Of a DNA stretch of 40,445 nucleotides, positions 5,111 through 36,647 are shown one piece after another. Source of the stretch: Planctomycetaceae bacterium (GTDB taxonomy: Bacteria > Planctomycetota > Planctomycetia > Pirellulales > UBA1268); assembly GCA_046074885.1 (NCBI GenBank), contig JBJTPA010000133.1:1-40445 (forward strand), given 5' to 3'. A program made the position numbers and the translations under genes. Within the stretch, counting starts at the first letter, position 1. Each line of letters opens with the position of its first letter. The notes beneath the pieces were generated by a model. That model was not told where the DNA came from and searched no databases. It worked only from the letters and a program-made list of their open reading frames with translations.

Positions 5111-9424
<4,314 letters not shown>

Positions 9425-13785: not shown

Positions 13786-14805
13786 TCAGCGCGGGAGCCG
13801 CGTCGGCAGCGCGGCCGTCGGGTAGGCCGGGGGGAACGTCGCCGGGAAGCCGACATCGACGGCGGGCTGCCACGACGTCGTGTGGCTGGACGGCTCGAGG
13901 AGCCGCGGGATGGCGCGGCTGGCGCCCGTCGGGCCGGCGCCCGGGCCGGCCGGCTGGGGAGCCAACACGTTCGTGCCCGACGTGATCGCACCCGGCGCGA
14001 GGCTCGGGGGCGCGATGCCGGCCGCCGATCCGGACGTGGTCGTCCGCGGCAACTCGGGGATCGGCTTGAGTGACGGCGCCGGCGAGAGCGCCGGGGGCGA
14101 GGTCGGCTGCGGCTGGACGGGCACCGTGGCCTGCGGGAGGTACGTGCCGCCCTGCGGCACCACCTGGGTCGCCGGGTAGCCGGTCGCGGGCAGGGCCGGC
14201 GGGCTGATGCTCGGCTGGCCGGGCACGAGTTGCTGCGGCACGTCGGCGGCCGCGGGCGCCCAGCCGGTCGGCGCGGGCTGGGCCGCGGGCGCCGCCGGCG
14301 TCGCGAACGGGCTCGCGGCGGTCGCGGCAGGACCGGGCAGTGCCGGGGCGGCCGGGTAGGCCGGGGCCCCGTAGCCGGGCTGCATCTGCACGTACTTGGT
14401 CGTGGTCACCGCGCGGTACTGCGTGACGGGCACGTTGACGGCCTGCTGCACGTACTGCGTCACCGGCTGCATGCACTCGGACGGGCAGCCGGTGCAGGGG
14501 TCGATCTCGCACGACGGCTTGTAGGTCGTGACGGGCACGCACTGGTACTGCGTGCGGTAGGTCGTCTCCGGGACGTAGCTCGTTGTCGCCACCGGCACCA
14601 TGACGGGCGCCGGGGGCGCCGCGATCGGCGCGGCCACGGGGGCCATGATCGGGGCCGGCGCGACGGCGTAGGGGGGCGCCTTGCGGAAGCAGGAGCCGCA
14701 GCCGGCGAACAGCGCGCTCAGGCAGCACTCCTGGGCGGCCGCGGAGGCCGCCGTCGTGGCGACGGCCACCGCCATCAGGATCCGGGTCATCCGCTTCGCG
14801 TTCAT
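13786..14805 (-). CDS. Secreted Cys-/Pro-rich protein of unknown function
   Basis: Signal peptide MNAKRMTRILMAVAVATTAASAAAQE. Cys cluster (CCLSALFAGCGSCF ... CEIDPCTGCPSEC). Repeated (V/T)T(Q/T)Y-type short motifs (TTYRTQYQCVPVTTYKP, VTQYVQQAVNVPVTQYRAVTTTKYVQ). Long Pro/Ala-rich tail. Start set at ATG 14805 rather than the track start 14841. Confidence 0.7.
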   Translation of the reverse strand: MNAKRMTRILMAVAVATTAASAAAQECCLSALFAGCGSCFRKAPPYAVAPAPIMAPVAAPIAAPPAPVMVPVATTSYVPETTYRTQYQCVPVTTYKPSCEIDPCTGCPSECMQPVTQYVQQAVNVPVTQYRAVTTTKYVQMQPGYGAPAYPAAPALPGPAATAASPFATPAAPAAQPAPTGWAPAAADVPQQLVPGQPSISPPALPATGYPATQVVPQGGTYLPQATVPVQPQPTSPPALSPAPSLKPIPELPRTTTSGSAAGIAPPSLAPGAITSGTNVLAPQPAGPGAGPTGASRAIPRLLEPSSHTTSWQPAVDVGFPATFPPAYPTAALPTRLPR

Positions 14806-14904
14806 CACAGGCACCTCCTCGATCGCCCGTCGGACCCGCACGGTCGGATTCCGGCCGGATCCACGGACATTCCTAGCGTAGGTCGCCTGCGACCGGGGTT
14901 CCGC

Positions 14905-14941
14905 AAAAAAAGCCGCCCTGGTTCGTGAATCCGGCGAACCC
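14905..14941 (-). terminator. Possible intrinsic terminator downstream of the 15-17.8 kb operon
   Basis: On the minus strand: GGTTCG-CCGGATTCA-CGAACC hairpin, then AGGGCGGC and a T7 run (A7 at 14905-14911 on the plus strand). A T7 run is very rare in this sequence. The 8-nt stem-to-U-tract spacing is not ideal. Confidence 0.3.
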
Positions 14942-15077: not shown

Positions 15078-15686
15078 TCACCGCGCGCGGGCGCGCCGCT
15101 CGAAGCGGTCGTAGAGGTCGTAGAGCGCCTCGCGGACGTCGCCGCGGTGCCGCCGGAACGCCCGCTCCACGTCGGCGCCGTCGATCAGGCCGCCGTGCGG
15201 GGGCAGGTCCTCCACGAGCCGGGCGAGCAGGTCGGGGCTCGTCTCGCACCGCACGAGCATCGTCATGCCGGTCGGACGGTGGCTCGTCACGAGCAGGCCG
15301 ACCCCGCGCCGCCATGCGGTCCAGCGGACCGCCACGGCCCACGTGCGACCGAGGGCCTCCCAGCTGTCGATGCAGAGCGTCGTGCCCGGCGGTGCCCCGC
15401 GGACCGCGCGGAGCACGCCGGGTCCGTCGGCCGGGGACCGCGGCCTGACGAGTCCGGCGAGGTCGCGGTCGTCCACGAGGCGGTCGGCCAGCGCCCGAAG
15501 CAGGTTCGTCTTGCCCGCACCGTGGGGACCCTCGATCGCAGCCCGCCCCGCCGCCCGCAAGCGGACGAGCAGCGCCGCGAGGTCGAGCGGGTCGCCCCGC
15601 GCGTTCCGCGGCGCGAGCCGGCCGGGAGCCGTGTGCCTCGTGGCGAACGGATTGCGCGGCACGGCGGCGGTGGACGTGCCGGTCAC
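15078..15686 (-). CDS. Small P-loop NTPase (AAA/DnaA-Hda-like core), function unknown
   Basis: Walker A GPHGAGKT, Walker B-like TLCIDSWE, sensor-1-like LLVTSHRP, helical C-terminus. GTG start at 15686 overlaps the upstream stop (GTGA). The track ORF 15078..16196 extends spuriously upstream. Confidence 0.75.
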   Translation of the reverse strand: MTGTSTAAVPRNPFATRHTAPGRLAPRNARGDPLDLAALLVRLRAAGRAAIEGPHGAGKTNLLRALADRLVDDRDLAGLVRPRSPADGPGVLRAVRGAPPGTTLCIDSWEALGRTWAVAVRWTAWRRGVGLLVTSHRPTGMTMLVRCETSPDLLARLVEDLPPHGGLIDGADVERAFRRHRGDVREALYDLYDRFERRARAR

Positions 15687-16117
15687 GACGTGGTCTCCTC
15701 GGCCGGCGCCCGCGCCGGCGGCACCCCGCCGACGTCGAAGACGTGCTCGGAGACGTAGTCCCGGCCGCCGGCAAAGAATACGCGGACCCGCACGCACCAG
15801 CGGATCTTCACGATGATCCCCTCGTAGGAGAGCGGGCTCGGGGGCAGCCGCGTGTTGAACGTGCCGCCCGCGAGCGCCGCGCGGAGCGGCCCCCGCTCGG
15901 TTATCCGCTCGAAGGCGTGGACGAACAGGTCCTCCTCTCCCTTGCCCTCGGTGTACCAGGCGACCGACAGCTCGAGCGCGCGGACGGACTCGGGATCGAC
16001 GCCGCCCACGCGGTAGCGCACCCCGAGCGAGTCGCCCGGATCGTAGCGGCGGCCGGGCCGGTCGTGCTGCAATTCGACGACGGGCGCGACGCGGCCCGGC
16101 TCGGGCGGGAGGCTCAC
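15683..16117 (-). CDS. Beta-rich 144-aa protein, Spo0M/arrestin-N-like pattern (tentative)
   Basis: VSLPPEPGRVAPVVELQHDRPGRRYDPGDSLGVRYRV...LELSVAWYTEGKGEEDLFVHAF...FNTRLPPSPLSYEGIIVKIRWCVRVRVFF. GTG 16117 overlaps the stop of the upstream membrane-protein gene (GTGA). Only the last 144 codons of track ORF 15683..17257 are taken as real. Confidence 0.65.
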   Translation of the reverse strand: MSLPPEPGRVAPVVELQHDRPGRRYDPGDSLGVRYRVGGVDPESVRALELSVAWYTEGKGEEDLFVHAFERITERGPLRAALAGGTFNTRLPPSPLSYEGIIVKIRWCVRVRVFFAGGRDYVSEHVFDVGGVPPARAPAEETTS

Positions 16118-17412
16118 GGCGCGGACTCCGGAGGGAAGACGACGACCGGGAACATCCGCGTGAACGGCGGCCACCGGACCGGGACGCCGCGTACAACGAT
16201 CCGCCAGCGGACCGCGTTGTGCTCCGACGCGAAGGAGTGCATGGCGTCGGCGGGGATCGCGACGGCGCCCAGCGCCTCGAAACGCGTGCCCGGCGCGACG
16301 TGGACGTCGCCCCACGTCCGCAGCGGCTCCCGGTGCACCACGAGCGTCTCGGTCCGCGTGTCGGTGCCCTGGCGGAACGTCGCCTGCTCCTCGCACTCGA
16401 GCGTCATGGACAGTTCGTGGAGGTCGCCCGAGCCGCCTTGCGCGAGCAGCACGTCGTAGCGGCCGCCCGGCCGCAGCGGGTGGTCCGCGATCTCGAGCTG
16501 GGTCGTGCCCACCGCCGTGCGCAGGATCAGGGCGCGGACGAAGCCCGCGACGGCCGCGGCGCCCACGGCCACGACCGGCACCAGCAGGCCCAGCAGGAAC
16601 CAGTGCCGCCGGCCGCCGGCGAAGTCGAGCCCGGCGCCGATGGCGAGCACGGCGAGCACGGCGTTCCAGGCGCCAGCGAACAGGCCGAGGCCGACGAGCG
16701 TCCACGACTCCGGGCTCTCGAGCGGGAGCCGCCAGCGGAGCACCGTGCCCGGTGAATTCGTCATGTCGTCGCAGGCGGGCACGCCGGGATGCCCCGGCGC
16801 GGGGGCGGCATGCGCCGCCGTCAGGGCCGGGAGTCCCGCCGCCGCCGCGATCGCCTCCTCCGACCGTCCCCAGCGCCTCAGCGCCCGCAGCAGGCCCGAG
16901 CCACCGAAGGCCACGAGCGCGCCGGGCAACAGCAACGTGAGCCCCCACATCCACCAGTGGAAGCCGCGCTGGAGCACGATCGTGCCCGGATCGGCGGGAT
17001 CGAACCAGCCGGGCACGTCGGTGCCGAGCGGCCAGCCCTCGAGCGCCGCTGCGGCCGCCGCGCGATCGGCGGTCGCCGTGGCGGGATCGGAGCGGCTCCA
17101 CGACTCGCGCGGCGTGCCGGCTGCGTCGTAGGTGACGAGCAGGCAGGGCCGCCAGGTCACCGTCGTCGAGCCCGGCGGGTCCTCGACCGTCCTGCGCACC
17201 AGCCCCTGGCCGACGATCCTGCAGGTCGTCGCGATGTAGTCGCGGTTGATCCGCCACTCGGGCACGGCGACGCCGCTGACCAGAAGCGCGGCGAACACGA
17301 GCCCCGCGGCCAGAAGCACGGCGTGGAACAGCCCGTCGCCGAACGATCCCCAGGCCCGCGACCCCGTCCGGCGGTCGCCGCGTTTCTTGCCGAAGATTCG
17401 CGGGAGCCTCAC
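16114..17412 (-). CDS. Four-TM membrane protein: DUF3592-like module plus C-terminal beta-rich domain
   Basis: Basic N-terminus, then TM1 (LFHAVLLAAGLVFAALLVSGVAV). Beta-rich loop ending GWFDPADPGTIVLQRG, resembling DUF3592. TM2, then TM3/TM4. C-terminal domain TQLEIADHPLRPGGRYDVLL...LSMTLECEEQATF...AIPADAMHSFASEHNAVRWRIVVRG resembles the downstream 144-aa protein. GTG start. Confidence 0.75.
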   Translation of the reverse strand: MRLPRIFGKKRGDRRTGSRAWGSFGDGLFHAVLLAAGLVFAALLVSGVAVPEWRINRDYIATTCRIVGQGLVRRTVEDPPGSTTVTWRPCLLVTYDAAGTPRESWSRSDPATATADRAAAAAALEGWPLGTDVPGWFDPADPGTIVLQRGFHWWMWGLTLLLPGALVAFGGSGLLRALRRWGRSEEAIAAAAGLPALTAAHAAPAPGHPGVPACDDMTNSPGTVLRWRLPLESPESWTLVGLGLFAGAWNAVLAVLAIGAGLDFAGGRRHWFLLGLLVPVVAVGAAAVAGFVRALILRTAVGTTQLEIADHPLRPGGRYDVLLAQGGSGDLHELSMTLECEEQATFRQGTDTRTETLVVHREPLRTWGDVHVAPGTRFEALGAVAIPADAMHSFASEHNAVRWRIVVRGVPVRWPPFTRMFPVVVFPPESAP

Positions 17413-17466
17413 GGTCGTGCTCGCTGCATCATGGCCGTGGTGGGCGGCGGAGCGTCCGCACGGCCG

Positions 17467-17799
17467 CTAGACGTTGGCCACGGTGTCCTCGGGGGACGCC
17501 GGAAGCGGAGTCGCCGTCAGCGGGGGCGCGGCCGCCTCGTCCCCCTCCGGCCTGCTGGCCCGGAAGAAGCCGATCTTCTCGAGCGCCTTGTAGACCTCCT
17601 CCAGCGTCTTCTCGCCGAAGTTCGAGATCGAGAGCAGGTCCGCCCGCGTGCAGTTGAGCAGGTCGTGGACGGTGAAGATGCCCCGCTCCTCGAGGCAGTT
17701 GGTGGTGCGGACCGAGAGGCCGATCTCGGCGGTGCTCATGTCGAGCTTCTCGGCCATCTCGTCCGACTGCGTCAGGTCTTTGTAGGGGATGCGAGGCAT
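17467..17799 (-). CDS. Standalone RNA polymerase alpha-subunit C-terminal-domain (alpha-CTD)-like protein, 110 aa
   Basis: IGLSVRTTNCLEERGIFTVHDLLNCTRADLLSISNFGEKTLEEVYKALEKIG matches the alpha-CTD helix-hairpin-helix signature (SVR..NCL....I..V.DL......L....N.G.KSL.E). ATG 17799 is preceded by GGGAGGGA. The N-terminal 210 aa of track ORF 17467..18429 are rejected. Confidence 0.85.
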   Translation of the reverse strand: MPRIPYKDLTQSDEMAEKLDMSTAEIGLSVRTTNCLEERGIFTVHDLLNCTRADLLSISNFGEKTLEEVYKALEKIGFFRASRPEGDEAAAPPLTATPLPASPEDTVANV

Positions 17800-36367: not shown

Positions 36368-36378
36368 GCCGAAGGTTC

Positions 36379-36468
36379 GGAGAGGTGGCAGAGCGGTCGA
36401 ATGCGCGTCTTTGCTAAAGACGTGTCCGGTCAAAAGCTGGACCGCGGGTTCGAATCCCGCCCTCTCCG
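36379..36468 (+). tRNA. tRNA-Ser (anticodon GCU)
   Basis: Acceptor GGAGAGG/CCTCTCC, 3-bp D stem GCA/TGC, anticodon stem CGTCT/AGACG with loop TTGCTAA. Long variable arm (class II), T arm GCGGG-TTCGAAT-CCCGC, discriminator G. No encoded CCA. Confidence 0.93.
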
Positions 36469-36647
36469 TTTTTCGGTTTCGCGCTCCGGCGCAATGAGCC
36501 GCCGGGCGTCAGGCCCGGCCTGAATGACCCGCGGGCCCAGGTGCGGCGTAGGAGCGGGAGGCTGCCACCATCGCCATCCCGGCCCAGGGTTTGCCAGTTT
36601 GCCCCTGGCGGCATTCGTTCTCGTCTTTTTCGGACGAGGTGCGCACC

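Follow-up and report, generated by a model that had tools for sequence, protein, structure and literature searches.

We analyzed a 40,445-bp contig of a Planctomycetaceae metagenome-assembled genome (MAG), here called the window, and find that three of its minus-strand genes, g2, g3 and g4, form an operon that is conserved in many planctomycete bacteria. g2 encodes a predicted inner-membrane protein with four transmembrane (TM) segments and a C-terminal domain modeled as an arrestin-like lobe, g3 a second, free lobe of the same predicted fold, and g4 a putative minimal AAA+ NTPase. We regard this architecture, a coupled operon with two arrestin-like lobes, one of them tethered, and an AAA+ partner, as highly probable. 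Our favored reading of what the proteins do, to which we assign a probability of about 0.5, is that they constitute an arrestin-like clamp of two lobes that is tethered to the membrane, switched by an ATPase and inherited vertically. The operon represents an arrestin-clan family in a new format, split, membrane-tethered and ATPase-coupled, and we found no description of such an architecture, nor of planctomycete arrestin-like proteins, in the literature searched.

A prediction made earlier from the sequence alone (the original prediction) had delimited a module of four minus-strand genes, numbered here g1 to g4 in minus-strand order. All four open reading frames (ORFs) are present where it placed them. 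g1 (17467..17799) encodes a standalone 110-amino-acid (aa) protein that resembles the C-terminal domain (CTD) of the RNA polymerase alpha subunit (Pfam PF03118). It is followed after 54 nucleotides (nt) by g2 (16114..17412; 432 aa), g3 (15683..16117; 144 aa) and g4 (15078..15686; 202 aa; identical to NCBI ACKOZU_04820), each of which starts with GTG. The domains that it had guessed, an alpha-CTD, a DUF3592 protein with four TM segments, a beta-rich protein and a P-loop ATPase, agree with our Pfam matches, hydropathy profile, structural models and sequence motifs.

g2, g3 and g4 are a translationally coupled unit

In the window, g2 and g3 share a GTGA stop/start overlap at 16114..16117 and g3 and g4 share another at 15683..15686, both on the minus strand. 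We followed these junctions through a close set of 84 related loci, of which 4 came from contig look-ups and 80 from the 217 stretches that matched the g3 signature in a scan of species-representative genomes. In 75 of 82 loci g2 and g3 share a 4-nt overlap, either ATGA or GTGA. Between g3 and g4 the overlap is 1–7 nt long in 50 of 82 loci, and most others show gaps of 0–3 nt. Tetramers resembling a Shine-Dalgarno (SD) sequence lie 5–20 nt before the g3 start in 69 of 80 distinct loci and before the g4 start in 50 of 80, against a background of 12%, the tetramer frequency in 16-mers inside g2. Since the overlaps are conserved and accompanied by internal SD-like sites, g2, g3 and g4 are a translationally coupled unit, and the functional unit is a three-gene operon rather than the four-gene module first proposed. 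The tight coupling that the original prediction had read from the overlaps of the last three genes is thus upheld, and it is further reinforced by the existence of g2–g3 fusions.

The order g2-g3-g4 is found in 84 close loci. It recurs in divergent loci whose g3 is 37–46% identical to that of the window and whose GC content is 0.48–0.65, as a gene-neighborhood comparison of the kind first suggested for this locus brought out. For these distant relatives we used a set of 80 loci from a metagenome scan that was seeded with distant g3 sequences. The divergent g2-g3(-g4) loci lack DUF3592, the alpha-CTD gene, UvrD and PolX, and in a subset of them g2 and g3 stand without g4 downstream. Because DUF3592 and g4 are both missing in some divergent loci, we take the core of the system to be a TM anchor plus two lobes, with g4 usually adjacent.

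In some relatives the C-terminal part of g2 and g3 are joined in one protein (P0367, 591 aa; P0466, 506 aa; P0448, 721 aa), and P0364 and P0452 are fragments of such fusions. In each of two independent assemblies P0466 is encoded by a single ORF without interruption, and the g4 homologue that comes next overlaps it by ATGA. These Rosetta-stone fusions argue that both arrestin-like lobes work as one unit. In two other relatives, P0494 and P0501, g3 is seemingly read into g4 (motifs NPFSTRHT and LLVTAH...LYDLYERRR), apparently with an out-of-frame stretch between; these may be frameshifted assemblies and not true fusions.

In several distant lineages an orthologous gene for a PQQ_2 beta-propeller (35–50% identity) lies directly upstream of g2 in divergent orientation, on the minus strand of L083 (~7185–8990), L098 (5602–7002), L128 (4379–5686), L165 (7355–7954), L169 (4482–5885) and L170 (20–1285). 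The neighbors of the distant loci are otherwise heterogeneous and include dockerin-like proteins, an MtfA-like protease, an FtsX permease, YchF, a DEAD helicase, FloA and a sulfatase, as read from ORF maps, translations and precomputed Pfam tables, with no dedicated Pfam run. The FloA (flotillin-like) gene directly follows g3 in L170 (3380–4420), a high-GC relative without an adjacent g4.

Predicted arrestin-like lobes in g2 and g3

g2 has more than 388 homologues at 61–90% identity. Its AlphaFold2 model (predicted local distance difference test, pLDDT, 75) and its hydropathy profile both give four hydrophobic segments, and from N to C terminus the protein consists of a basic tail, TM1, DUF3592, TM2, a conserved linker, TM3, TM4 and an arrestin-like lobe. 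In the model TM1 spans aa 19–46, TM2 aa 153–180 and TM3 with TM4 aa 234–301. The polybasic N-tail (MRLPRIFGKKRGDRRTGS; 17359..17412, minus strand) is predicted to be cytoplasmic and has invariant P4, K9, K10, G12, R14, R15 and G17. Since there are 8 Lys or Arg residues among the first 24 aa and four TM segments follow, both termini are predicted to face the cytoplasm, so that the N-tail, the linker and the arrestin-like lobe should be cytoplasmic and the DUF3592 domain periplasmic.

The DUF3592 domain (Pfam PF12158; aa 64–152, 16957..17223, minus strand; model domain aa 60–146) occupies the loop between TM1 and TM2, predicted to be periplasmic, and scores above the Pfam cut-off (E 1e-9; 39.2 bits versus 25.3). 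It is missing from g2 of L075 and of most distant loci. As the divergent g2 proteins lack profile positions ~50–140, we consider DUF3592 an optional, dispensable insert. To our knowledge the family has no known function, and it is hardly mentioned in the literature searched. The linker, predicted to be cytosolic, carries the conserved motif HPGVPxCDDxxNSPGTxLRYRLPxESPExW (aa 209–237; 16702..16788, minus strand), in which P212, N219–T223, L225, R228–P230, S233 and W237 are invariant; pLDDT is low there.

The C-terminal lobe of g2 (aa 304–423; 16144..16503, minus strand) is modeled as a beta-sandwich and is predicted to be cytoplasmic. In a Foldseek search of the PDB it matched the N-lobe of ARRDC3 (E 2e-9) and Spo0M (E 8e-8), with matches of the g2 model to the N-lobes of ARRDC3 and TXNIP at E 2e-9 to 7e-8. 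Template modeling (TM) scores against these two N-lobes, normalized to the target, were 0.62–0.73, and the superposition on that of TXNIP gave 0.73 with a root-mean-square deviation of 3.3 Å.

The g3 model, built by AlphaFold2 on 60 homologues, is an all-beta sandwich with one helix (pLDDT 84). Its Foldseek matches are the ARRDC3 N-lobe, Spo0M, the TXNIP N-lobe, beta-arrestin and Vps26 (E 2e-6 to 2e-4; TM-scores 0.50–0.58). Both lobes thus have the predicted fold of the arrestin clan (Pfam CL0135, comprising Arrestin_N/C, Vps26 and Spo0M), whose members were the top matches when, as had been proposed at the outset, Foldseek was run on AlphaFold models of the two proteins. The original prediction called g3 a free beta-rich domain: it is indeed beta-rich, but the arrestin-like character of both g3 and the g2 C terminus, which the models and Foldseek reveal, had escaped it.

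The g3 family is large and distinct in sequence. A g3 profile run against 1.84 billion representatives retrieved, after clustering at 50% identity, 828 clusters at E<=1e-3 and 383 at E<=1e-10. Its signatures are WYTEGKGEED (aa 54–63) and LPxSPLSYEG...RWCVRVR, of which WYTEGKGEED and RWCVRVR are specific to the family. No Pfam or NCBIfam model reaches its cut-off on g3, and the profile found nothing below E 0.1 among PDB sequences. Among 40 distant g3 relatives, 11 match Arrestin_C (best 7e-5) and 5 match Arrestin_N below threshold, and Rgp1 and Vps26 each gave one sub-threshold match among relatives. PilZ matches, seen in 8 of the 40 relatives (best E 0.01), we consider spurious, as the RxxxR-like and SxxG-like strings stand in the wrong order for a site that binds cyclic di-GMP. 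A recent duplication that gave rise to the g2 lobe and g3 was likewise rejected: the two profiles are not significantly similar (hhalign E 0.15), only one strand (LPxSPLSY in g3, IPxDAMHSF in g2) aligns, and BLASTP of the two window domains was negative.

Spo0M (Pfam PF07070; structure 5cl2), which represents the arrestin clan in bacteria and archaea (PMC2515105), is the nearest relative known from bacteria. Like the lobes described here it is a prokaryotic arrestin-like beta-sandwich of poorly understood function, and 5cl2 is among the top Foldseek matches of both g3 and the g2 C-terminal lobe. PF07070 gave no match at E<=1 for g2, g3, 40 g3 relatives or 17 g2 C-terminal domains, so the resemblance to 5cl2 lies in the structure alone. 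Whereas Spo0M is soluble and consists of one polypeptide, here one lobe is carried by a protein with four TM segments, a gene of its own encodes the other, and both are coupled to an AAA+ ATPase. With its 828 clusters, the g3 family would be a second, large bacterial arrestin-like family beside Spo0M, the sole prokaryotic branch in the literature that we found.

The best structural matches are eukaryotic, to alpha-arrestins (ARRDC3, TXNIP), beta-arrestins and Vps26. As in arrestins, the fused relatives carry two sandwiches in tandem; among the proteins described here, two lobes in one polypeptide are seen only in P0367, P0466 and P0448 and not in the window, where two genes encode the lobes and TM helices anchor one of the two. 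The bacterial proteins also differ from eukaryotic arrestins in having no PPxY, clathrin or retromer context, in their AAA+ partner and in their sequences, which are 10–19% identical.

g4, a predicted minimal AAA+ NTPase

g4 has the motifs of AAA+ and other P-loop NTPases: a Walker A sequence of the form GxxxxGK[ST] (GPHGAGKT; aa 53–60, nt 15507–15530) and a Walker B sequence resembling hhhhD[DE] (CIDSWE; aa 105–110, nt 15357–15374). Further motifs are an N-terminal NPFATRHTAPG, a putative sensor 1 (LLVTSH) and a C-terminal helical part with R185...LYDRFE. In an alignment of 56 sequences G53, H55, G56, G58, K59, D107 and W109 are invariant, as are the N-terminal NPFxTRxxxPG, R185 and LYDRF. 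No Pfam or NCBIfam cut-off is reached. Relatives of g4 match Hda (TIGR03420; 40 of 56, best 3e-7, spanning Walker A through sensor 1), AAA_16 (46 of 56) and nSTAND_NTPase5 (41 of 56), all below cut-offs, and window g4 itself scores 16.3 bits for Hda (cut-off 194.8), 16.5 for AAA_16 (32.6) and 15.3 for nSTAND_NTPase5 (34). Matches of the g4 profile to PDB sequences, namely RecA, ABC ATPases and midasin, are confined to the P-loop region. Judging by its motifs, we place g4 in the Hda/ORC/STAND-like branch of AAA+ NTPases, as a minimal member that lacks accessory sensor or effector domains, for which 202 aa leave no room. It shares with that branch the Walker motifs, the putative sensor 1 and a C-terminal lid in which an Arg is conserved. 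It differs in having no DNA-binding, winged-helix or repeat domain, in scores far below the cut-offs, in the NPFxTRxxxPG motif, which is unique to the g4 family, and in adjoining genes for membrane proteins and not for replication.

The similarity of g4 relatives to P-loops of nSTAND_NTPase5, AAA_16 and NACHT families, weak as it is, raises the question of whether the operon might be an anti-phage or conflict system, in which g4 would be a STAND-like NTPase sensor, g2 a membrane-disrupting effector and g3 an adaptor. Abortive-infection systems often combine an NTPase with a membrane protein, and g4 matches mad8 in PADLOC-DB 2.0 (E 1.4e-4) through its P-loop alone. However, g4 has neither sensor repeats nor an effector domain, g2 and g3 match nothing in PADLOC, and the only matches to that database are P-loop or helix-hairpin-helix fragments (mad8, 1.4e-4; PglW, 4e-6). 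Homologues of g3 were absent from 72,556 plasmid and 50,697 phage records. The operon also lies in a fixed, syntenic housekeeping neighborhood in 84 of 84 close loci, across which g2 is 51–90% identical; this constancy points to vertical inheritance under purifying selection, in contrast to patchy, diversifying islands. Since the operon is vertically inherited, a housekeeping role at the membrane or envelope is more likely than mobile defense, which we think distinctly unlikely. The earlier statement that the gene combination matches no described system therefore stands, given that PADLOC returned nothing meaningful, that g3 and g4 remain below Pfam and NCBIfam cut-offs and that our literature searches brought up nothing.

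g1 is a conserved neighbor and not a member of the operon

The match of g1 to RNA_pol_A_CTD (PF03118) is strong (E 7e-20; 70.9 bits versus a cut-off of 23.8), and g1 is not a full-length RpoA, as TIGR02027 scores 61 bits against 227.8 and is matched only at model positions 225–292. The original prediction had counted g1 as part of the module and speculated that a membrane sensor and an ATPase might signal to transcription through it. In 77 distinct close loci g1 does precede g2 on its strand by 18–303 nt; it is extremely conserved and, in an alignment with the E. coli alpha-CTD, retains what we take to be the counterparts of the DNA-contact residues R265, N268, C269, G296 and K298; and even in the distant loci L165 and L169 an alpha-CTD gene is found within ~1–3 kb (6909–7196 and 2707–2991, respectively). 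Yet in the clade of the window the adjacency of g1 and g2 says little, because the whole block, consisting of a divergent UvrD gene, the alpha-CTD gene, g2, g3, g4, a gene for a Pro-rich secreted protein and PolX, is frozen there.

Outside that block the two part company. Genes on the opposite strand separate g1 from g2 in L083, L133 and L142, where the intervening gene encodes a PQQ propeller, and in L165 and L169, where one to three genes intervene. L075 has g2-g3-g4 and no g1, and in 20 distant loci where g2-g3(-g4) is intact and the sequence extends 1.8 kb or more upstream, an alpha-CTD gene is missing. Across all loci that have it, g1 stays beside UvrD and not beside g2. We conclude that g1 is a very conserved neighbor and not a member of the operon, whose boundary is corrected accordingly; with g1 separable from g2-g3-g4, the proposed link to transcription loses its support, and we consider a four-gene signaling unit very unlikely. 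At 95–110 aa, with 76–98% aa identity in more than 90 loci, the standalone alpha-CTD is the most conserved protein of the region. A free alpha-CTD conserved to this degree is interesting in its own right and deserves separate study.

Given that UvrD and PolX flank the operon in all close loci, it could also be asked whether g2-g3-g4 is an accessory module for DNA repair that is tied to this helicase and polymerase, with g4 as an Hda- or RecA-like ATPase. g4 is weakly similar to Hda and to the P-loop of RecA, but the RecA matches do not extend beyond the P-loop region, both flanking genes are missing in most distant loci and g2 is a predicted integral membrane protein. We regard a role in DNA repair as extremely unlikely.

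The same Pirellulales-type block occurs in MAGs labeled Candidatus Kuenenia or Chitinophagaceae (L012, L014, L019, L023, L034, L036 and others); these are probably mislabeled bins.

Proposed mechanism

How might the three proteins act together? Probably g2, g3 and g4 form one membrane-bound complex. The mechanism that we propose for it is tentative, possible but short of probable. g2 would serve as an inner-membrane anchor with four TM segments, both termini in the cytoplasm and a C-terminal arrestin-like lobe, and g3, made in step with g2 through the 4-nt stop/start overlap, would be the second lobe. The two lobes would come together on the cytoplasmic side of the membrane as a clamp resembling arrestins or Vps26, and g4, as a switch that depends on nucleotide, would assemble, remodel or release this clamp or its ligand. 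As ligand we think a short peptide within a membrane protein likely; candidates are the invariant polybasic N-tail of g2 itself and the NSPGTxLRYRLP linker. The basic N-tail could be the counterpart of the g3 loop WYTEGKGEED, which is acidic and invariant. Input from outside the cell membrane might come from the periplasmic DUF3592 loop or from the divergently encoded PQQ propeller.

Several observations weigh against a clamp with an ATPase switch. We infer both the pairing of the lobes and the ligand. The TM-scores of g3 are moderate (0.50–0.58), and its lower-ranked Foldseek matches include generic Ig-like sandwiches. No Pfam model of the arrestin clan reaches its curated cut-off on the window proteins or their relatives, and the window proteins themselves give no match; nor, as noted, do the profiles of the two lobes resemble each other significantly. 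The placement of g4 within the AAA+ proteins draws on weak matches, and some of the distant g2-g3 loci have no adjacent g4, nor does the fused P0448, so the ATPase may be accessory.

Some of these points suit a different explanation, namely that the sandwiches are arrestin-like at the level of the fold only and that the complex serves, for example, to assemble or anchor a component of the envelope, with g4 as the assembly ATPase. The PQQ-type beta-propeller protein is a candidate for such a component, given the position of its gene beside g2 in L083, L098, L128, L165, L169 and L170, and both the Ig-like sandwiches among the Foldseek matches and the lack of an arrestin Pfam match above cut-off also speak for this explanation. 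However, the clade of the window has no PQQ gene at the locus, nor is there one anywhere in the window; members of the arrestin clan consistently top the structural matches of two independent models; and the lobes are predicted to be cytoplasmic, whereas the propeller, to judge from its inferred location, is presumably exported. We find this explanation doubtful, but it deserves to be weighed seriously.

If the arrestin-like lobes do clamp the tails of membrane proteins, the operon would provide a tractable bacterial model for the origin of arrestin-type adaptors, and a role could be assigned to three "hypothetical" genes in hundreds of planctomycete genomes. Planctomycetes are known for membrane invagination, uptake of macromolecules and complex endomembranes, and parallels between their cell biology and that of eukaryotes have been drawn repeatedly. 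A bolder proposal, which we consider unlikely, is that the g2 and g3 lobes together are an ancient, widespread planctomycete cargo adaptor of the arrestin/Vps26 type, tethered to the membrane and reset by the AAA+ ATPase. Such an adaptor would select or regulate membrane proteins, for example during membrane invagination and macromolecule uptake, and would be a prokaryotic counterpart of the arrestin-type trafficking adaptors of eukaryotes.

Other features of the window

A 7-codon upstream ORF (uORF; ATGATGCAGCGAGCACGACCGTGA; 17409..17432, minus strand) ends on the start of g2. The original prediction had suspected that it might be there by chance, and the comparison bears this out: only 22 of 77 loci have an ATG-started uORF whose end coincides with the g2 start, and these uORFs are 2–181 codons long. 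We therefore reject it as a functional element. Its TGA is a by-product of the g2 start itself, where GTG is followed by an AGR arginine codon in 66 of 77 loci (17407–17412, minus strand, in the window). This codon, rare in a high-GC genome, results in a conserved GTGA.

The run of seven T residues downstream of g4 (14905..14911, minus strand) is present as described earlier, as are the GTGA overlaps, the 54-nt gap and the uORF. It follows a GC-rich structured stretch 3′ of g4 and is a possible terminator; the region folds no better than shuffled sequences (z 0.95) and a terminator scan made no call there. The same holds for a hairpin or terminator between g1 and g2, where the fold is no better than that of shuffles (z 0.78). 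The sole terminator-like site that the scan returned lies inside g3 and is within chance expectation. Rfam and tRNA scans found nothing inside the four-gene stretch; the only RNA gene in the window, by Rfam and ARAGORN, is tRNA-Ser(GCT) at 36378–36469 on the plus strand.

The Pro/Ala-rich secreted protein of the conserved block (351 aa; 13786–14841, minus strand) has a Cys-rich N terminus (CCLSALFAGCGSCF). In the clade of the window its gene is always found between g4 and PolX, and the proteins are 43–72% identical in local alignments. A similar Cys- and Pro-rich protein of 533 aa is encoded after g4 in the distant locus L093 (9947–11548).

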